This document shows positions 613 to 37,980 of a stretch of 49,337 nt of DNA, one piece after another (the stretch's first letter is position 1; every line of letters begins with the position of its first letter). The DNA is from Escherichia phage phiD2-2: sequence record OR861627.1. One strand, 5' to 3'. A program made the position numbers and the translations under genes. The notes below the pieces were generated by a model that saw only the letters and a list, made by a program, of their open reading frames with translations, was not told the DNA's origin and made no database searches.

Positions 613-1100
613 TGAGCTTAAAAAATAACGTTATAGGCGCATCGATCGGGGCTGCTTTGACGTTGACACCCACCCTACTGGAACGAATCGAAGGTATAGA
701 ATACGAGGTGTATTACGATATAGCCGGAGTCCCTACCGTATGCAGCGGAATAACCGGGCCGGACGTCATACCTGGTAAGAAATACACTAAGCGAGAATGC
801 GATGCATTGCTGATAAAACATATCGGCGTCGCTCAGCGATACGTTGACAAAAAGGTGAATGTTGATATTCCGGTAACGATGCGCGCGTCACTGTACAGCT
901 TCACTTTCAACGTTGGAACTGGCGCGTTCGGATCTTCTACAATGCTTAAGCTAATAAATCAGAGTAAGCACAAGGAAGCGTGCAATCAGTTATGGCGATG
1001 GGTATACTACTACAACCCAAAAACCAAAAAGCGAGAAGTGTCTAGAGGACTCAAGAACCGACGCGCTGAAGAATACGCGTATTGCGTTAAGGAATTATGA
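612..1100 (+). CDS. endolysin, T4-lysozyme-like (GH24) with N-terminal SAR signal-anchor
   Basis: N-terminal weakly hydrophobic segment [16 protein letters not shown] followed by E-x8-D-x5-T catalytic spacing ([26 protein letters not shown]); 162 aa. Confidence 0.8.
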
Positions 1101-1501
1101 TGAAACTGAAGAAAACGTGCATTGCGATTACAGTGGCTGTTGGTGTTATTTCTCTATCCGGTTGCTCTACGGCATCTGCCCTGAGCGGTTTAATCGGATC
1201 TAAACCGGAAGTTACAGCACAAATCGGAGAGGAGAACACAAAGCAATTAGCAGGAGTAACCGCAAAATCCGAAGATAAGCGAGATGTTAAAGTTGAGAAG
1301 TCCAATGTAGGAAAGATTGACTCTTCCTTGAAGAAGTCAATTGAAGTGTCAACCATTAAGGCTAACACGGTTAACGCTGAAAGCATCACAATAACAAAGC
1401 CAGAAAACTGGTACGATGCAATTGTAGGATGGACTCTCGTTTTCATTGGCCTATTGCTGGTTTATTTTTCAATTCGTAAGGACGAAAAAAAAGGAGGCTA
1501 A
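1097..1501 (+). CDS. unimolecular spanin (T1 gp11-like lipoprotein with C-terminal TM anchor)
   Basis: Signal peptide plus lipobox (VISLSGCS) and a single C-terminal TM helix ([15 protein letters not shown]); overlaps endolysin stop (ATGA). Confidence 0.7.
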
Positions 1502-3900: not shown

Positions 3901-3972
3901 CACAATAAACTCCTTGGTTGACGGTGTAAATGATACACCGCCAATGGTACACGCGTTTTGCAAAAAGTGCTA
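3901..3972 (-). promoter_or_regulatory. gene-boundary cassette upstream of the DUF3987-like gene
   Basis: TAGCACTTTTTGCAAAAC, hairpin CGGTGTA/TACACCG around TATCAT, CCAAGGAG leader. Confidence 0.5.
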
Positions 3973-3976
3973 TTGG

Positions 3977-4393
3977 TTATAAGTATTTGGCCTCAAAGGT
4001 TGTGCCGTCAGCTATGCTAAAACCGATCTCTTCGCGAAACAATGTCCAACGGCAACCATCCTCATCAAAAATATAACCAGCTACGCCGCCGAGAGCGCGA
4101 CCGCTTTCCACCTGGTAACGCTTGCCAAGTTTGAATGATTTTTTCATCGGATTACGATGGTCAAGCCCGGTGCACTTGAGCGTCTTTGTTTTCAACTCAG
4201 CGAACTTCGCGAAGAAGATTTCATCAGATCCGTGAATCTGTAATTCATCATGCTTTTCAAGTTTTAAATACTTTCCGCATTTTAATTTTACTTCGCGAGT
4301 GCCATCATAGCGCTCACGACCTTTGTACAGGTTGTTTACTTCAAATCCTGTGATTTTATCTGCGGAAGTACATTTAAGTTTGATGGATTTCAT
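3977..4393 (-). CDS. hypothetical protein (138 aa)
   Basis: Track ORF preceded by conserved leader CCAATCAGGAG and a boundary cassette. Confidence 0.6.
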   Translation of the reverse strand: MKSIKLKCTSADKITGFEVNNLYKGRERYDGTREVKLKCGKYLKLEKHDELQIHGSDEIFFAKFAELKTKTLKCTGLDHRNPMKKSFKLGKRYQVESGRALGGVAGYIFDEDGCRWTLFREEIGFSIADGTTFEAKYL

Positions 4394-7546: not shown

Positions 7547-7615
7547 TCCAATAGTTGCTCATTATTCCACCAGCAATGGAATATCTGGAATAATTGCGAT
7601 CCCGATTGATCTAGA

Positions 7616-7690
7616 ATGATGAAATGTGATTGTTGCATGATGTGCAACTGTTGATGTGATTGTTGCTTGGAATGCAATGATTGTGAGAGG
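7616..7690. repeat. tandem operator-like units (GTGATTGTTGC with TTGCA-N5-TGCAA inverted repeat)
   Basis: Two about 30-bp units; first contains perfect TTGCATGATGTGCAA. Confidence 0.5.
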
Positions 7691-7733
7691 GAGGATCTAG
7701 TGTTACCCGGTTCGTCTGGTAGTCATCTCCATT

Positions 7734-7753
7734 TTTAGCAAAAAGTGCTATCG
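7734..7753. repeat. boundary palindrome copy at the edge of the AT-rich hub
   Basis: TTTTAGCAAAAAGTGCTATC. Confidence 0.5.
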
Positions 7754-8154
7754 ATTACACTTTACCTTGTCACGGATGTAATATTTGTCTAGAATCGCAC
7801 TTGTGACAAAATTACACACTGTGACGCCTCTAAATATACATATAGATATATGTATCTATATAATATATATAGTGTTTTTTTTATTTATATATATAGATAA
7901 TTATATTGTAATAGTTGTGTATAGTTGTCTTACATTGTCTAGCGTACTGTTGGCATATTTCTATCTGCATGTTTATATATACAGTACTTTTTTGAGAGCT
8001 ATATATTTCTATAGTGACTCTAGACAGCTAGACAAATGTTACACGGCTTAAAATTGGCTCGCAGGCATTGACAGCTCTACATCGCAATGTCACAATGGCA
8101 ATTGTTGGCACATTATGACACCATTTACACACGAATAGACAAAGAGGGTATATT
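7754..8154. promoter_or_regulatory. AT-rich divergent control hub 1 with GTGTAA/TGTCTA-type repeats
   Basis: Alternating TA tract (7840-7910), TTGTCAC/GTGACA repeats, GTGTAACATTTGTCTAG in reverse orientation near 8027-8046, TTGACA near 8069. Confidence 0.5.
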
Positions 8155-8670
8155 ATGAGCAACACCAATCAGGAATTAAAAATCACCGATATGATTCGAC
8201 TAACCTGCGATGCAATGTATCGCGACAAAGGCATGAATGAGTTCTCTTTCGTGGCTGATGATATGGCCCTCGAGGCCGCGCGATTCTACTTCCGTGACCA
8301 GGAGGTAAGTGATAGCGATCTTGAATCTGCCGCTGCCGGATGGGTGGACCAGAACCAGGGTGAGGTGGAGAAGCGATTCAAGTCTGCTTTCATTACGCCA
8401 ATCATTACCCGGCACTTTTGCAAGTATGGCAAGGTGGCAAAGGTGAAGGTAGGCCGGAATGACGCTGCAATCACAATGATAACGGTTATCGTTACCGACG
8501 AAGAGATTCCCGTGAAGAAGCGCCGCAGCCGGAAAAAAGTTAGCCTGGCCGACTGCCTGGATTCGTTTGATGTTGATGTTGGCAAGCTATCGGATAGCGA
8601 GTTAATGGTTCGCGACGTGAATGAGATCGTACGCCAGATGAAAGCACATATCGAAAAGTGCGGGCTGTAA
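8155..8670 (+). CDS. hypothetical protein (171 aa), first rightward early gene
   Basis: Track ORF with AAGAGGG RBS; acidic patches. Confidence 0.6.
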   Translation: MSNTNQELKITDMIRLTCDAMYRDKGMNEFSFVADDMALEAARFYFRDQEVSDSDLESAAAGWVDQNQGEVEKRFKSAFITPIITRHFCKYGKVAKVKVGRNDAAITMITVIVTDEEIPVKKRRSRKKVSLADCLDSFDVDVGKLSDSELMVRDVNEIVRQMKAHIEKCGL

Positions 8671-8760: not shown

Positions 8761-8955
8761 ATGGAAACGCAAATTGACGTAGTGGTTGTTCAGCGAGACT
8801 CAACTCATGAAAAGGGTCTGTTCAAGAAAGGAACCGAAATCACGATCGACCTTGAGGATATGGTTGCGTATCACTCTGGCCTCACTTGGAACGTGGTGCG
8901 CGTAGGCAGCGACTACAAACTCAAAGGCTTTAACACTTACTTTGCGGAGGTTTAA
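8761..8955 (+). CDS. hypothetical protein (64 aa)
   Basis: Track ORF with cassette and GAGGAA RBS upstream. Confidence 0.55.
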   Translation: METQIDVVVVQRDSTHEKGLFKKGTEITIDLEDMVAYHSGLTWNVVRVGSDYKLKGFNTYFAEV

Positions 8956-8957
8956 TT

Positions 8958-9428
8958 ATGGCGACAATTACCGTATTTCTTGCTAAAGATGAGCTTGATG
9001 GCGAAATGTCATTCTTCGCGTTTGAGCATAAAACCGGCTCGCACTGGCACACTTACAGCCATTACACGGTTATCTCAATTGAAGCGTACGACGGCGAACT
9101 GCTCACTGATAAACTGAGTAATTTCATTGAAGCCGTTAAAGCTAGCGGCGGCTGCGAGTGGAAGGAAGATCACGAAGTTATGCGAATGTTTGAGATGGTC
9201 AATCCGGTTCGCCTTGAGTCGTTCGAGCTTGATGCTAATGTGACTATCAAGGTGAGAAAGTCGGGTGAGTTATTGCCAGGGATGCGTGTACTGACTGGTT
9301 ACTCTGGCCGTAAGGTGTGGCGCACTGTATCCAAGATTCGCCAGCGCTCGGCAACATGCTATAGCGTATTCTTTGATGATGGTTGGAATATGATGTCCGG
9401 TAGTGAGGTAAAGTATCTCACCAAATAG
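8958..9428 (+). CDS. hypothetical protein (156 aa)
   Basis: Track ORF with GGAGG RBS; TAG stop lies inside the downstream palindrome. Confidence 0.6.
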   Translation: MATITVFLAKDELDGEMSFFAFEHKTGSHWHTYSHYTVISIEAYDGELLTDKLSNFIEAVKASGGCEWKEDHEVMRMFEMVNPVRLESFELDANVTIKVRKSGELLPGMRVLTGYSGRKVWRTVSKIRQRSATCYSVFFDDGWNMMSGSEVKYLTK

Positions 9429-9506
9429 CACGAATTGTTAAAACCTGATCGGGGTATCTTGCTATAGTTACCCCATCGAAACGAGATACCAATCAGAGGA
9501 ATAACC
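9425..9506 (+). promoter_or_regulatory. gene-boundary cassette (upstream stop TAG inside palindrome)
   Basis: ATAGCACGAATTGTTAAAAC, hairpin GGGGTA/TACCCC enclosing TGcTATAGT, CATCGAAACGAG, CCAATCAGAGGAAT. Confidence 0.6.
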
Positions 9507-9737
9507 ATGTCAATCGTCAAGAACCAGCAAGCCATCGATTCAACCAACAACAACCGCTTTGCTATTTTCATCACTCGCGACAACAAGCGTTTTGCGGTCA
9601 AGGTAGTACCGGGTGGATACAATACATACATGGAAGGTAACGGAAAATGGGTTCGGTGTGACAACCTCTCAAACTTCCTGGTCTGGAATGCAGAACTCCA
9701 GGGATTTGATGATATCAGCACTTTAATTGAGGAGTAA
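9507..9737 (+). CDS. hypothetical protein (76 aa)
   Basis: Track ORF preceded by cassette and CCAATCAGAGGAAT leader. Confidence 0.55.
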   Translation: MSIVKNQQAIDSTNNNRFAIFITRDNKRFAVKVVPGGYNTYMEGNGKWVRCDNLSNFLVWNAELQGFDDISTLIEE

Positions 9738-9742
9738 TAATC

Positions 9743-9970
9743 ATGCCACGTTACAGCAACCTAACTCAACTAACCCGCGTCAACGGGCACATGATCCCGG
9801 CTAAATCTACTCACTGCGCGAAAGGCGCAAAGCACGGATTATATTTCAAGTGGCGCGGCCAATGGAACTTCACAGCTGTGAATAATTTCTACATGCGAGT
9901 TCCAGGTGATGACCCGCAATCAGTAGTAGAAAACTCAATCGGTGACAACAAGATCGAGGTACTAAAATGA
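9743..9970 (+). CDS. hypothetical protein (75 aa)
   Basis: Track ORF with GAGGAG RBS. Confidence 0.55.
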   Translation: MPRYSNLTQLTRVNGHMIPAKSTHCAKGAKHGLYFKWRGQWNFTAVNNFYMRVPGDDPQSVVENSIGDNKIEVLK

Positions 9971-10077
9971 ACTTTAATACAGTAGCGCTATGGTCTGCCG
10001 TCTGGTTCTTCTGCATGGGTCACGTCATGGTCGGCATCGTGGTAATGCTTCTCCTGTGTGCGGGGGCGTTCGAATGA
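9967..10077 (+). CDS. small hydrophobic membrane peptide (about 36 aa)
   Basis: Hand-translated (MNFNTVALWSAVWFFCMGHVMVGIVVMLLLCAGAFE); ATGA start/stop overlaps on both sides; below track cutoff. Confidence 0.35.
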   Translation: MNFNTVALWSAVWFFCMGHVMVGIVVMLLLCAGAFE

Positions 10078-10247
10078 TGCGTATATTGATTTGCATGATG
10101 GCTGCTGTCGCCCTGACTATCCTGGTAGTGTCCGGCTGCGGCGAGGTCAAAGAGCGATGCCATGAAACCGGGAGCCAGGTTACTACTTTCGTGATGGTTG
10201 GCAACGTATTGCTACCAATCACATCAAATGAAATCACTTGCGAATAG
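10074..10247 (+). CDS. small putative lipoprotein (about 57 aa)
   Basis: Track ORF 9990..10247 trimmed to MMRILICMMAAVALTILVVSGC, a signal peptide with lipobox-like VVSGC. Confidence 0.4.
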   Translation: MMRILICMMAAVALTILVVSGCGEVKERCHETGSQVTTFVMVGNVLLPITSNEITCE

Positions 10248-10281
10248 GATGTTAAAATGGCTGATTTTATGCACCAAATGA

Positions 10282-10449
10282 TTGGCAGTATTCAAATGTA
10301 GTGATGACCAGGAAGTTAAAGAGTGCTTTACCGTTGACAAGCCTTATAACGCATCGCTAACCAGCTTCGGGAACATCTCATTGCTTGATGATAATGGCGA
10401 CCCCTGGATATTCGACGAAGACACCGATTGCTTCGAAATTAAAGAATAG
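10282..10449 (+). CDS. possible small acidic protein (about 55 aa), TTG start
   Basis: Hand-translated open frame ending at the TAG inside the 10447 palindrome; no convincing RBS. Confidence 0.25.
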   Translation: MAVFKCSDDQEVKECFTVDKPYNASLTSFGNISLLDDNGDPWIFDEDTDCFEIKE

Positions 10450-10520
10450 CACTTTTTGTTAAAAATAAATTCCGGGGTTGCGATATAGTAACCCCATCGA
10501 CAACGAACGAGGACGATAGC
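10447..10520 (+). promoter_or_regulatory. gene-boundary cassette
   Basis: TAGCACTTTTTGTTAAAAA, hairpin GGGGTT/AACCCC enclosing TATAGT, CATCGACAACGAACGAGG. Confidence 0.55.
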
Positions 10521-11009
10521 ATGAAAATCAAATTAATTTGCACTGGCGGTTACAAGGGATTTACCCGAGATCTGGAAGCGGACCCTATCGTGGTTGATGC
10601 GGTGAAGTGTGATTCCAGTACTGGAGGCTACCGTGTTAAGGTTGACGATCTGGTAAAAGCTGGCGTGTACGATCTTGATTATGGGCTTTCGGTTAGCCCG
10701 GTATTTGGTCCGGCCGACTTCAACGAGAAAGACGGAACGATGTTCTTTTTTGAGTGGGAAGTGCAAGCGAACGTCAAGCCTCGTAAGGTTCGACTTCTCA
10801 ACAATGGCGGCTACCCGATGAGACCAGGTTATGAGAATCGCACGTTCCCAGTTATTGTGGACTTCACCGAAATCACTAACAAACTGGTCTACGTCAGCAA
10901 TGAGCATTTCCAGGCTGTAGGATTCACTGGCGGTATGCATAAAGAAGCGCTGTGCTTCGTTCGAGAAGAAATGCACGGTTACTATTCTGAGTGCGAGTTA
11001 GTTTACTAA
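10521..11009 (+). CDS. hypothetical protein (162 aa)
   Basis: Track ORF with cassette and GAGGA RBS. Confidence 0.6.
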   Translation: MKIKLICTGGYKGFTRDLEADPIVVDAVKCDSSTGGYRVKVDDLVKAGVYDLDYGLSVSPVFGPADFNEKDGTMFFFEWEVQANVKPRKVRLLNNGGYPMRPGYENRTFPVIVDFTEITNKLVYVSNEHFQAVGFTGGMHKEALCFVREEMHGYYSECELVY

Positions 11010-11080: not shown

Positions 11081-11587
11081 ATGTTAAAATTAGAAGACGT
11101 AAAATTCCCGATTAAATTTATCAGCCTGGGTTGCGGTGAAATTACATTCACCAGTGAAGATAAAGGCAAGTTGGCCACTGGTGAGGTGTCTCAGCTTAAG
11201 TTGGATTGGTTTATCAATCGGCACAATGAAGTAAATCCTGAAAACTCAGCCAAGAAGGATTACCATTACATTATTAGTTGTAGTTATGATGCGTACGGAA
11301 AGTATGATGGTTGGAAAACTGATCGATCCATCTTCCACCCCTCAAAGCCAGAAGTCGAGCCATCGCTACAATGCACTCAGATCGAGAACATGCCATTGAG
11401 CGCTACGCTAAAGGGCGTCCAACTTGATAGCGAATCCTGGGCCGAGATTACAGCCACACCTAAAACTATTGAGGTACATGATGATGTGGTGATTCTCCTG
11501 TTGCATTACGGCAGCTTTAAGCACAAAACGGTATCAGGTGAAATCAGCATTAAGCGCGGAACGCTTGTACGATATGAGGTGAAATAA
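11081..11587 (+). CDS. hypothetical protein (168 aa)
   Basis: Track ORF with AAGAGGAAA RBS. Confidence 0.6.
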   Translation: MLKLEDVKFPIKFISLGCGEITFTSEDKGKLATGEVSQLKLDWFINRHNEVNPENSAKKDYHYIISCSYDAYGKYDGWKTDRSIFHPSKPEVEPSLQCTQIENMPLSATLKGVQLDSESWAEITATPKTIEVHDDVVILLLHYGSFKHKTVSGEISIKRGTLVRYEVK

Positions 11588-11736
11588 TGGCTGCGTGGGT
11601 CTTGATTATCTTGATGAGTACCGGTCCGGATCACGTATACATGGAAAGTCAGCAATCATGCAACAAGGCTCGGGAGGTGATTTCAGAGAACAAGCCGTTC
11701 GGATACGAAGTAAAAACGATGTGCGTTAAACGATAG
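11587..11736 (+). CDS. small membrane protein (about 49 aa)
   Basis: Hand-translated; ATG overlaps upstream TAA; hydrophobic N-terminus (AAWVLIILMSTG); TAG stop inside the 11733 palindrome. Confidence 0.35.
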   Translation: MAAWVLIILMSTGPDHVYMESQQSCNKAREVISENKPFGYEVKTMCVKR

Positions 11737-11816: not shown

Positions 11817-12116
11817 ATGAAAATCAGATTAACCAGTAGCTACTTTAACCGTGAATCTTTCAATCAGTACATAATCACAGACGGAATGAATACAGGCATC
11901 GTCCTTGATGTATCCCACAACATTGGCGACGTTATGTTTGTATCAGCAACTGAGCTTGCAAAGTACGCAAAGCCAGAACATCGCCACCTGGCAGAGCCGC
12001 ACTTGAGCGATGGAAAGGTTACAGATTACGCATTCACCAAAGGTGAGTATGAAATCGTGAGATCTGGACCTTTCAGATTCTGGAACAAACTTAAATCAGG
12101 GGAGTTATTCAAATGA
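11817..12116 (+). CDS. hypothetical protein (about 99 aa)
   Basis: Track ORF 11775..12116 trimmed to ATG (MKIRLTSSYF) after CCAATCAGAGGAAT leader. Confidence 0.55.
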   Translation: MKIRLTSSYFNRESFNQYIITDGMNTGIVLDVSHNIGDVMFVSATELAKYAKPEHRHLAEPHLSDGKVTDYAFTKGEYEIVRSGPFRFWNKLKSGELFK

Positions 12117-12400
12117 GCAAAACTCATAAGTTAAAAATCGCCCCTGTACATTTCATTGGTGTAATGAACGGAACCAAAACGGCAGAGTTCCGCATCAATG
12201 ACCGAAACTTCCAATCTGGCGATATCCTGGAGCTATGCGAGTTCGATCGAGATGAGTTTACCGGGTGGGAAGTTCACGCCAGGGTATCCGATGTTACCGA
12301 TGTGACGCCATACATCAATCGCGGGTATGACGAGCAAGAATGCGACTTCACGCAATACGTGATGTTATCAATCAAGCCTTACAGGAAGGTTAGACCATGA
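12113..12400 (+). CDS. ASCH/PUA-like domain protein (95 aa)
   Basis: G-x-K-x-x-E-x-R followed by GD (NGTKTAEFRINDRNFQSGDILEL) matches the ASCH signature as I recall it. Confidence 0.5.
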   Translation: MSKTHKLKIAPVHFIGVMNGTKTAEFRINDRNFQSGDILELCEFDRDEFTGWEVHARVSDVTDVTPYINRGYDEQECDFTQYVMLSIKPYRKVRP

Positions 12401-13035
12401 AATTTGAATGTGTGCTTAGTAACGGATCTGGATTTAAGTACGGCAAAATCTACGAAGGCGCTCGCGTCAATTGCAACAGCTTCGTTATCACGGATGAGCG
12501 CGGTAGAAATGTTAACGTTGTCCGGCGTCACGAATACCAGGAAATTTTCCTGCCGTACGGCAATAGTTCAAAATACATCTTCCATCGAATCGTTGATGGT
12601 GTTAAATTTAAAGACGTAATCGAAGCAATCAACCAACTTCATAATAAAGAGGTAAAATTTATGAAATTCGAATGTATCAGCGATAACACCAAAAAATTTA
12701 CTGTTGGCAAAATTTACGATGTTCCCTCTGAGCACGCTAAGCACACGGCTGTAATTACCGACGACACGGGCCGCCACCGCATTGCAACCGTAACGCACAA
12801 CGGTGAAGGTCTTCGCTGGAATAGCGGCGGCACTAAGTTCGCAACGTTCGGCAAGAAGCGCAAGCGCACTTTCTGCGTCAAGGGCAATGTTGCGGCGAAC
12901 AAGACCCACAACGACAAGGCGTCACAAGTTGACCGCAAGCCAGCATTGAAGTTTGAAGAGAAAGCGGATTTATCCGGCCTGGCTGTTGCGCTTGTTCTCC
13001 TGGTAGCTTCGATTTCGCTGATGTTCATCATGTAA
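12397..13035 (+). CDS. membrane-anchored protein with tandem duplicated domain (212 aa)
   Basis: Two copies of an MKFEC...GKIY...ITD..GR module starting at residues 1 and 89; C-terminal TM helix LAVALVLLVASISLMFIM; internal ATG at about 12661 has its own AAAGAGG RBS. Confidence 0.6.
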   Translation: MKFECVLSNGSGFKYGKIYEGARVNCNSFVITDERGRNVNVVRRHEYQEIFLPYGNSSKYIFHRIVDGVKFKDVIEAINQLHNKEVKFMKFECISDNTKKFTVGKIYDVPSEHAKHTAVITDDTGRHRIATVTHNGEGLRWNSGGTKFATFGKKRKRTFCVKGNVAANKTHNDKASQVDRKPALKFEEKADLSGLAVALVLLVASISLMFIM

Positions 13036-13040
13036 TTTTA

Positions 13041-13076
13041 ACGGGGAATCGGATCTGAACGGTTCCCCTTTCTTTT
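13041..13076 (+). terminator. rho-independent terminator
   Basis: Stem GGGGAA/TTCCCC then TTTCTTTT. Confidence 0.6.
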
Positions 13077-13088
13077 GGAGAAAACACT

Positions 13089-13199
13089 ATGCCAGACTTT
13101 TCTAACTGGAATAACGAGCCGCCATCATTTCAGGAGTTGCTATTTTGCCTCCTGGTCCTGACATTATCTCTTAAGGGTGTTTTATGGCTACTATCATAA
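13089..13199 (+). CDS. possible small hydrophobic peptide (about 36 aa)
   Basis: Hand-translated ORF after a terminator, GGAG RBS; overlaps start of next ORF. Confidence 0.25.
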   Translation: MPDFSNWNNEPPSFQELLFCLLVLTLSLKGVLWLLS

Positions 13200-13469: not shown

Positions 13470-14081
13470 ATGGATAAAATTACCATTTGGGGCCAGACTG
13501 TCAACCTGTTTCTAGGTACTCGCCGTGTGGCAATCTTTGACTTCGACGGAACGCTGAGTGACGGCTCAAAACGTCTTCACCTGCTACCGACAAAAGATTT
13601 GCACTTGACTGAAAGCTGGTCTGAGTTTAACCGCGCGGCAATATTTGATAACCCAATCCAAAGCACGATCGACGTAATGAACTCCATGTATGCCGCTGGT
13701 TATCATGTGATAATTTTAACCGGGAGAAGCGATGAGGTGCGTTACGCATCTGAGTTATGGCTTAAGCATCACGGCGCAAGATATGATTACTTAGTCATGA
13801 GGCCGCATACCGACAACCGCAAAGACACGGTAATGAAAGAAGAGGCGGTGCGCGCGATCGGCGTTGATAACATTCTGGCAGCTTGGGATGACTCACCGCA
13901 AATTATTCCATTATTCCGATCGCTTGGAATAACCACGTATGCCGTAGTTGACTATGGCGATAACGTTCACGATCATTTAAAATCTCACGGGGTGGATGAG
14001 GTTTGCAATCATGAACCATCTGAGCCGCTACCGCCATTTGGCGATAAAATATGCATTAAGTGCAAGGAGTTATTGAAGTGA
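13470..14081 (+). CDS. HAD-superfamily phosphatase, resembles the 3'-phosphatase domain of T4 polynucleotide kinase/phosphatase
   Basis: Motif I FDFDGTL, motif II-like ILTGRS, downstream NRKDTVMKEE and AWDDSPQII...VVDYGD; resemblance to T4 Pnkp C-domain is from memory. Confidence 0.6.
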   Translation: MDKITIWGQTVNLFLGTRRVAIFDFDGTLSDGSKRLHLLPTKDLHLTESWSEFNRAAIFDNPIQSTIDVMNSMYAAGYHVIILTGRSDEVRYASELWLKHHGARYDYLVMRPHTDNRKDTVMKEEAVRAIGVDNILAAWDDSPQIIPLFRSLGITTYAVVDYGDNVHDHLKSHGVDEVCNHEPSEPLPPFGDKICIKCKELLK

Positions 14082-14191
14082 ACCTGTACGAATTTATTGC
14101 AGCACATCCTGTATTGACGGTTATCATCCTGTTAATCATCAATCACACTATCATCAATGTGGCAAAATTATTTTTAGGGAGATACTAACAT
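14078..14191 (+). CDS. possible small membrane peptide (about 37 aa)
   Basis: Hand-translated GTG-start ORF between phosphatase and kinase (VNLYEFIAAHPVLTVIILLIINHTIINVAKLFLGRY). Confidence 0.25.
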
Positions 14192-37725: not shown

Positions 37726-37750
37726 GCCCCTTTCGGGGCTTTTCTTTTAC
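37724..37750. terminator. bidirectional terminator between fibre-region gene and lipoprotein gene
   Basis: Stem AAGCCCC/GGGGCTT with TTTC loop then T-run. Confidence 0.65.
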
Positions 37751-37980
37751 ATCGAGCAATCGTGAGACTTGAAGTTATTCTCTGATACGTAATGGAATGA
37801 GAATGGATACCCAGCACGTAACAGCATCTCATCACCGCGCATCTTTGATCCAAAAACGGAAACCGAGTACTCTGCGTCACCTGATTCATAAATCGCAGTA
37901 CAAGTGCGCTCAGGCATCGATGAGCAACCAGTCAGGATGAATGCCGCAGCAATAATGGTGATTAATTTTTTCATTTGCAT
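37747..37980 (-). CDS. outer-membrane lipoprotein, Cor/Llp-like superinfection-exclusion candidate
   Basis: Convergent to the fibre genes; signal peptide with lipobox (MKKLITIIAAAFILTGCSS); short Cys-containing mature part; GAGGA RBS. Track start 38040 trimmed. Confidence 0.5.
   Translation of the reverse strand: MQMKKLITIIAAAFILTGCSSMPERTCTAIYESGDAEYSVSVFGSKMRGDEMLLRAGYPFSFHYVSENNFKSHDCSM

Follow-up and report, generated by a model that had tools for sequence, protein, structure and literature searches.

The locus and its two small genes

The window, which is the whole stretch of 49,337 nucleotides (nt) analysed here, is the DNA of Escherichia phage phiD2-2 (sequence record OR861627.1), a T1-like Tunavirus (Drexlerviridae). 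Directly downstream of a gene for a DUF7274 protein lie two very short open reading frames (ORFs), the first for a hydrophobic peptide of 36 amino acids (aa) and the second for a protein of 57 aa that begins with a lipoprotein signal. There is very little doubt that both are real genes that encode proteins, are translated together and correspond as orthologues to ST73 and ST72 of phage T1; they belong to the promoter-proximal operon at the left end of this virulent T1-like phage. The features of the locus are listed with the basis of each assignment in brackets.

9743..9970, plus strand: upstream gene, 75 aa, Pfam DUF7274, phrog_6080, orthologue of T1 ST74 (sequence, PHROGs, Pfam)
9956..9960, plus strand: Shine-Dalgarno sequence GAGGT, 6 nt upstream of the ATG of the 36-aa ORF (sequence; kept in relatives)
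9967..10077, plus strand: hydrophobic micro-protein of 36 aa, orthologue of T1 ST73, phrog_25570 (one predicted membrane helix)
10062..10066, plus strand: Shine-Dalgarno sequence GGGGG, which is GGAG or GGGAG in relatives, 7 nt upstream of the lipoprotein ATG (sequence)
10074..10247, plus strand: prolipoprotein of 57 aa, orthologue of T1 ST72, phrog_8628 (lipobox rule, PHROGs)
10074-10136, plus strand: predicted signal peptide, residues 1-21 (lipobox rule)
10137-10139, plus strand: codon of the lipobox Cys22 (lipobox rule)
10158-10241, plus strand: predicted beta-hairpin, residues 29-56, between the near-invariant Cys29 and Cys56 (AlphaFold2)

The TGA of the DUF7274 gene (9968-9970) sits within the ATGA at 9967-9970 that starts the 36-aa ORF, whose translation is MNFNTVALWSAVWFFCMGHVMVGIVVMLLLCAGAFE, and the TGA of the 36-aa ORF (10075-10077) sits in turn within the ATGA at 10074-10077 that starts the 57-aa ORF. 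A preliminary description of this DNA had claimed both overlaps, linking the gene at 9743-9970 to the 36-aa ORF and then to an ORF of about 57 aa, and the sequence bears this out in every part. Its structural reading, a hydrophobic peptide translationally coupled to a small lipobox protein, is likewise upheld, and each of the two ORFs has its own Shine-Dalgarno sequence. Overlaps of the ATGA or GTGA kind are the usual style of this operon, with further cases at 12113, 12397, 14078 and 15041. A megablast search with positions 9400-10600 matched 71 phage records; the best match is Escherichia phage vB_EcoS_SH2 (99.8% identity), followed by other T1-like coliphages and Shigella phages.

Related loci were taken from IMG/VR and GenBank, with the upstream DUF7274 gene as an unbiased anchor, and the ratio of nonsynonymous to synonymous polymorphism (pN/pS) was calculated by the pooled Nei-Gojobori method. 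Conservation in related genomes had been set beforehand as one of the checks on the two ORFs, and it came out in their favour. Both ATGA junctions and both ORF lengths are retained in 15 of the 16 related genomes, and both ORFs are under purifying selection. Across the pooled relatives and in the proper frame, the 36-aa ORF has a pN/pS of 0.11-0.15 and the 57-aa ORF one of 0.19; the flanking gene at 9743-9970 has 0.22-0.25, and the two alternative frames have values of 1.06-3.4. Variable nucleotides are enriched at third codon positions in the two ORFs (P=0.006 and 0.0001), and both products have full-length PHROG matches, the 36-aa protein to phrog_25570 (E=5.4e-27) and the 57-aa protein to phrog_8628 (E=6.9e-29). 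Rfam and tRNA scans reveal no RNA gene to account for the conservation.

The frame-specific substitution pattern refutes the reading that these are chance ORFs or that the true gene is an 85-aa frame starting from the ATG at 9990. Phage SH6 does annotate its lipoprotein gene in this way, as an 85-aa protein (P0045), and the ORF list of the window also has an entry at 9990-10247. However, the 85-aa frame has a pN/pS of 2.7-3.4 over 9967-10074, compared with 0.11-0.15 in the 36-aa frame, and in one related locus (L015) the sole start is the ATG of the ATGA overlap. The start given to the SH6 gene is wrong, and the 85-aa reading can be set aside with near certainty. The ATGA overlaps on either side of the 36-aa ORF, together with its very short length, might instead suggest that it serves the lipoprotein gene merely as a leader or as a spacer for translational coupling and that its peptide is functionless. 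This is highly improbable and largely refuted already: the 36-aa sequence is the most constrained of the three genes (pN/pS 0.11-0.15), the ORF remains where the lipoprotein gene is deleted (metagenomic genome L009) or absent (phage IME347), and a lipoprotein-like gene in another contig (L020) stands without it.

The genes are not new. The preliminary description had implied that these ORFs had gone unnoticed, which is wrong, since they are catalogued in GenBank, PHROGs and UniRef, and T1 has ST73, ST72, ST69 and ST67, all four labelled hypothetical. The T1 annotation of 2004 places ST73 (YP_003871.1, 36 aa) at 1992-2102 and ST72 (YP_003872.1, 57 aa) at 2099-2272, both as hypothetical proteins and both within the annotated 2.8-kb terminal repeat of T1. 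By tblastn, they are 83% and 89.5% identical to the window proteins, respectively. The T1 genes match those of the window in length, follow the DUF7274 gene in identical order and overlap by ATGA at both junctions, with no material difference. The pair in the window is therefore made up of catalogued orthologues of T1 ST73 and ST72. The exact window protein sequences are present in NCBI and UniRef, and the UniRef name for the 57-aa product is 'Lipoprotein'. Annotation among the relatives is uneven: LeonhardEuler annotates both genes, the 36-aa gene is unannotated in SH2, Chapo and ISF001, and the annotation of IME347 omits its 36-aa homologue. A literature search found no paper that assigns a function to these T1 genes or gives data on their expression or essentiality. 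Phages of the T1 type are notorious for contaminating laboratories and are also phage-therapy candidates, and most of their left-end genes have no known function.

The two predicted envelope products

A single membrane helix is the simplest reading of the 36-aa product, because the peptide has a hydrophobic span of 30 residues and its best 19-residue hydropathy window reaches 2.46. It contains no Lys or Arg. His19 is invariant and lies in the middle of the helix, preceded by Gly in most sequences and by Ser in phage 008, and the C-terminus has a conserved AGAF-E/D with one acidic C-terminal residue. The product is thus predicted to be a single-pass inner-membrane peptide with a conserved mid-membrane His. 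The peptide is conserved more widely and more strictly than the lipoprotein; in ISF001 it is 97% identical while the flanking genes are 63% and 74% identical. Tblastn against phages, IMG/VR pattern scans and a search of 185,579 species genomes place it in Tunavirus and in the Badaguanvirus IME347 only. The IME347 homologue (MH051918.1, 1750-1860) is a syntenic ORF of 36 aa with 44% identity, is ATGA-coupled to its upstream gene and keeps both His19 and the C-terminal AGAF-D/E; downstream of it, the 57-aa lipoprotein has no homologue.

These properties bear on a different role, in which the 36-aa peptide is channel-forming or depolarising, like a viroporin or type I toxin, and contributes to the membrane permeability changes early in T1 infection, the lipoprotein being an unrelated neighbour. 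The extreme hydrophobicity with no basic residues, the invariant mid-helix His19 that is kept even in IME347, and the conservation that is wider and stricter than that of the lipoprotein all speak for such a peptide. So do the early T1-induced changes in membrane permeability reportedly described by Keweloh and Bakker in 1984. However, searches of PHROGs, Pfam, NCBIfam and PDB sequences find no homology of the peptide to channels, toxins or characterised families, and the classical T1 permeability change is usually ascribed to DNA entry and not to gene expression. A depolarising role of the 36-aa product is a distinct possibility, but considered unlikely.

The 57-aa protein begins with MMRILICMMAAVALTILVVSG, which is followed by the lipobox Cys, and cleavage is predicted between VSG and C. 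A lipobox rule of the PS51257 type was applied by hand (a basic residue in positions 1-7, an uncharged core, [LVI][ASTVI][GAS]C and the Cys at 15-35); the protein has Arg3 within the first seven residues, an uncharged core from I4 to V19, the sequence V-S-G-C and the Cys at position 22. It would accordingly be exported by its lipobox signal peptide and lipidated on Cys22, leaving a mature lipoprotein of 36 aa (Cys22 and 35 further residues). The lipobox Cys is retained in 33 of the 35 distinct family sequences. The last 21 residues are almost invariant, and the linker and the start of the first strand are variable. The AlphaFold2 model built on the family alignment (mean predicted local distance difference test score, pLDDT, 70) places a helix over residues 2-19 and two strands over 29-42 and 45-56, so that the remainder of the lipoprotein is predicted to be a beta-hairpin tethered to the membrane on its periplasmic side. 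Cys29 and Cys56 are located near the open end of the hairpin and are retained even in P0021, which is only 55% identical; this position and this retention in the most divergent member make a periplasmic disulphide between the two a reasonable inference. In the distal half of the hairpin (VTTFVMVGNVLLPI) both faces are hydrophobic, which suggests burial in a partner or in the membrane rather than exposure in solution.

The string VMVG.V..LL is common to the peptide (HVMVGIVVMLL, 10020-10050) and the hairpin (FVMVGNVLL, 10188-10215). A duplication linking the two was considered and rejected, as the shared string is at chance level (E about 3). Other proteins of the same phage compared with both products gave only chance-level matches.

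Distribution, natural variants and operon context

The lipoprotein family consists of 22 clusters among 5.8 billion proteins, all of them T1-like, and searching 1.84 billion cluster representatives with its profile gave no match past this family. Tblastn detects the lipoprotein in about 55 Tunavirus records, with no convincing match elsewhere. Neither member of the pair has a match in the 5,426 complete E. coli genomes, the plasmids or the 185,579 species genomes searched, and this absence is counted as restriction to lytic phages.

Some relatives have lost the lipoprotein gene, and some natural variants alter the lipidation or sorting of its product. L009 lacks the gene through a deletion, and frameshifts interrupt it in phage 008 and in the database variants P0019, P0020 and P0022; in DELF2 (L010) the change Cys22Phe removes the lipobox, and SH6 (L007) carries Gly21Val. 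The deletion, the frameshifts and the loss of the lipobox in relatives indicate that the lipoprotein gene is dispensable, and both genes of the pair most likely encode dispensable envelope factors. The gene for P0021, at 1838-2014 of L020 (Logan DRR001793 contig), comes immediately after the DUF7274 gene, without an intervening 36-aa ORF. Its product keeps both hairpin Cys residues and the invariant C-terminal strand, and probably has an uncleaved signal anchor.

The plus-strand gene run that holds the pair begins at 8155, past an AT-rich divergent intergenic region. The boundaries of the operon and the further micro-ORFs considered here are the following.

7767..8154, plus strand: cluster of five matches to sigma70-like promoters, immediately before the first operon gene, within the AT-rich divergent intergenic region (consensus matches only)
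11587..11736, plus strand: ORF of 49 aa, orthologue of T1 ST69, phrog_5579, hydrophobic over a short N-terminal stretch and with two Cys that are conserved (pN/pS 0.11)
13043..13068, plus strand: terminator-like hairpin closing the operon, corresponding to the T1 rho-independent terminator at 4001-4034 (matched by position)
13089..13199, plus strand: ORF of 36 aa, identical to T1 ST67, with a C-terminal hydrophobic helix (pN/pS 0.34; no PHROG match)
14078..14188, plus strand: hydrophobic ORF of 36 aa whose GTG start codon forms a GTGA overlap with the polynucleotide kinase (PNK)/phosphatase gene (pN/pS 0.10; no PHROG match)

A promoter scan of 8.5 kb on both strands gave 11 sites, compared with 16.6 in shuffled sequences; five of them, on the plus strand, fall within about 400 nt. 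The genes scanned in the operon are all without known function, save for the PHROG label 'RNA-binding protein' on 12113-12400. One of them, at 8761-8955 (64 aa), matches Pfam PF25180, 'phage antiviral trigger protein Gp54', with E=2.6e-36, and lies in the same operon as the micro-ORFs. Gp54 of phage Bas11 is a small protein that directly activates the defence protein CapRelSJ46 and is non-essential in the laboratory, and its authors suspect that it may inhibit another defence system (PMC11578894). The promoter matches, the terminator and the Gp54 homologue together fit an early accessory operon. The AT-rich divergent intergenic region, which extends from 7563 to 8154, also contains several palindromes and short direct repeats; in T1-type genomes its counterpart is probably the physical left end together with the promoter region.

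This setting supports the main rival to the exclusion role proposed below, namely that the peptide, the lipoprotein or both serve counter-defence or host takeover, not the blocking of other phages. They would bind and neutralise a component of the host envelope, for instance a transporter, a protein of stress signalling, or a membrane-embedded sensor or effector of immunity. The left-end operon, whose genes are small, non-essential and fast-evolving and which also holds the homologue of Bas11 Gp54, is a fitting place for such factors, and the lipoprotein gene is dispensable, variably present and part of a family limited to lytic T1-like phages. However, neither product resembles a known anti-defence protein or a function-bearing PHROG, no target can be named, and the support comes purely from context. 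Counter-defence is a real possibility, though on present evidence a somewhat unlikely one.

The preliminary description had also listed similar hydrophobic ORFs of less than 60 aa at 11587, 13089 and 14078. All three are under purifying selection and have divergent homologues in other Drexlerviridae genera, so that they hold up as genes. Two details do not: the ORF at 14078 ends at 14188 and not at 14191, and the ORF at 11587-11736 is not hydrophobic overall, with a grand average of hydropathy (GRAVY) of -0.17 and only its first 11 or so residues hydrophobic. The latter ORF is conserved across several Drexlerviridae genera. The ORF at 13089-13199 shares a 16-nt overlap with the next gene, and the ORF at 14078-14188 starts with ATG in most relatives and with GTG here. 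The outcome of the analysis is thus mainly a clean confirmation that five ORFs of less than 60 aa are genuine and selected, yet missing from some deposited annotations. In L014 (JMPW1), the orthologue of the ORF at 11587-11736 (3956-4102) has an in-frame stop at codon 25, from either a sequencing error or gene loss.

Two other genes of the operon deserve mention. Relative to SH2, where the phrog_11551 gene encodes 63 aa, the corresponding gene in the window (10257-10449) is split by an extra G at 10284/10285; the frame from the ATG at 10257 ends after 14 codons, and the remainder forms a TTG-started ORF at 10282-10449. The split is either a sequencing error or a fresh pseudogene, and T1 and L009 are without this gene. 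The last gene before the terminator-like hairpin, at 12397-13035 (phrog_10580), encodes a 212-aa protein with two internal repeats starting MKFEC...GKIY and a C-terminal hydrophobic tail anchor. A match to phrog_14592 is common to this protein (1.2e-05) and, weakly, to the ORF at 10282-10449 (E=0.064).

Proposed role and known exclusion and lysis systems

We tentatively propose that the pair forms an early accessory envelope module that blocks secondary infection by other phage genomes, that is, superinfection exclusion. Host RNA polymerase would transcribe the pair soon after infection, and the products, as dispensable accessory envelope factors, would shut the envelope so that no further phage genome is delivered. 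By strand addition, as the unrelated exclusion lipoprotein Rtp45 does with LptD, the hairpin would bind a target exposed to the periplasm, either a host envelope protein or the DNA-delivery apparatus of the incoming phage. The site of action of the peptide would be the inner membrane, where it may not depend on the lipoprotein. The proposal draws on the predicted envelope location of both products, the predicted hairpin, a layout of Cys residues in common with Cor and Llp, the accessory nature of the lipoprotein gene, the setting of the operon and the restriction to lytic phages. The preliminary description had pointed to superinfection exclusion or host membrane manipulation as frequent roles of small membrane peptides in early operons. 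If this is true, a hairpin scaffold of 35 residues that binds an envelope target would be of interest as a peptidomimetic lead.

Several known exclusion lipoproteins bear on this proposal. Cor (of phi80, T1 and N15) and Llp of T5 are FhuA-blocking exclusion lipoproteins, and Llp is periplasmic. Rtp45 (PDB 9RPS), from the Drexlerviridae phage Rtp, is an LptD-blocking exclusion lipoprotein that binds LptD by beta-sheet formation at the periplasmic face, and what is described of it resembles the predicted hairpin of the 57-aa protein.

Several observations weigh against an exclusion role. Searches of PHROGs, Pfam and NCBIfam give neither protein any homology to exclusion proteins or to a characterised family, PDB sequence searches with both proteins return chance-level matches only, and a Foldseek comparison of the AlphaFold2 model with the PDB has its best match at E=1.8 and none at E<=0.001. 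The hairpin model itself is of moderate confidence, being derived from a shallow alignment (effective number of sequences, Neff, 1.7). Alignment by hhalign to Cor (probability 13%) and to Llp (7%) covers the signal peptide only, and Rtp45 is unlike in sequence (hhalign probability 0.6%), its alignment likewise being confined to the signal peptide or lipobox. Receptor-blocking lipoproteins adjoin receptor-binding genes, and the Rtp45 gene also lies beside a receptor-binding locus, whereas the pair does not; in the window that slot, on the tail-gene side, is held by Cor. The designation as an early operon is plausible, its timing being read from consensus promoter matches. The two genes also occur apart, the peptide without the lipoprotein in L009 and IME347 and the lipoprotein-like gene without the peptide in L020, so that peptide and lipoprotein are not obligate partners.

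The membrane anchor presents a further difficulty for the exclusion role. Most variants have Gly directly after the lipid Cys, and the others have Val, Ser or Asp, so that the predicted sorting is ambiguous. The IME18-type variant (L006), which is seen on the most contigs (84), has Cys-Asp-Glu and thus Asp at +2. In E. coli, according to the +2 rule as summarised in a published paper, Asp at this position means retention in the inner membrane, where this variant should accordingly stay. P0021, the most divergent member at 55% identity, has no lipobox Cys at all (..IIILSYDD..). An inconstant anchor of this kind does not fit a fixed outer-membrane receptor as target. The varying anchor, including that of the lipobox-less P0021, points instead to the membrane-tethered periplasmic hairpin, and not to a particular anchor, as the conserved functional unit.

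When all ORFs in the window were scanned with a relaxed lipobox pattern, the 57-aa protein, a few short unannotated ORFs and two lipoproteins of known type emerged.

37750-37974, minus strand: Cor exclusion lipoprotein, phrog_1119 (lipobox scan, PHROGs)
1100-1501, plus strand: T1-type unimolecular spanin (u-spanin), phrog_1804 (lipobox scan, PHROGs)

The second of these belongs to the T1 lysis system, which has been described in a paper as consisting of a pinholin, a signal-arrest-release (SAR) endolysin and a u-spanin. Both products of the pair are predicted to face or span the compartment in which these three proteins act, and they could therefore serve lysis timing or envelope protection, for instance as a tethered periplasmic inhibitor of the SAR endolysin or the pinholin, or as a guard against lysis from without. 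Against this, the genes are about 8.5 kb from the lysis cassette and in another transcription unit, they have no similarity to antiholins or spanins, and the u-spanin already covers the spanin function, all of which makes a part in lysis improbable. Spanins include an outer-membrane lipoprotein from the lysis cassette that is paired with, or fused to, an anchor in the inner membrane; the pair has no match to a spanin PHROG, and its genes are located outside the lysis cassette. Holins and pinholins are membrane proteins of the lysis cassette, usually with a charged cytoplasmic C-terminus, and the 36-aa peptide has no holin match in PHROGs or Pfam, has no Lys or Arg and is encoded far from the lysis genes.

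Other small membrane proteins bear comparison. In size class and in having a single hydrophobic helix, the peptide is like the host small membrane proteins and type I toxins AcrZ, CydX, MgrB and TisB; it is set apart from them, without direct comparison, by having no relative in bacterial genomes or NCBIfam. T4 Imm and Sp, gp15 of HK97 and Ltp of Streptococcus phage TP-J34 are small inner-membrane or membrane-tethered extracytoplasmic proteins, made early in infection or by prophages, that stop DNA delivery after adsorption. The likeness of the pair to these four is by analogy only, with no PHROG or Pfam homology and without direct comparison. A weak match of the 57-aa protein to LptM (E=0.15, 12 bits against a cutoff of 27.7) covers the signal peptide alone and was rejected.

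The closest parallel in layout is with Cor and Llp, the Llp sequence used being 100% identical to T5 llp. No match of the 57-aa protein to phrog_1119 is found in PHROGs at E<=0.1, and BLASTP to the Cor of the window gives no alignment. The mature part has 36 aa, compared with about 59-62 aa in Cor and Llp, and the +2 residue, which is Gly, Val, Ser or Asp in the 57-aa family, is Ser in both. In spite of these differences, all three are small lipobox lipoproteins in which the lipid Cys is followed at a distance of 8-11 residues by a second Cys and, near the C-terminus, by a third. Counted from the lipid Cys, the positions are +1, +8 and +35 in the 57-aa protein, +1, +11 and +58 in Llp and +1, +9 and +57 in Cor. 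In Llp the Cys11-Cys58 bond constrains the termini, and in the 57-aa protein a corresponding bond would join Cys29 and Cys56. This layout invites the more speculative and rather improbable idea that the 57-aa protein is the smallest of a set of convergent, disulphide-clamped exclusion lipoproteins and that, with the His-bearing peptide, it forms a second, receptor-independent layer of exclusion. The target of the lipoprotein would then be a periplasm-spanning step that many phages have in common, such as TonB or the incoming DNA-delivery conduit, and not the receptor covered by Cor, and the 36-aa peptide would seal or gate the inner membrane. A periplasm-spanning target would explain why outer-membrane, inner-membrane and non-lipid anchoring are all tolerated. 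If the two products do modify the envelope, they would add a receptor-independent layer to the Cor system.

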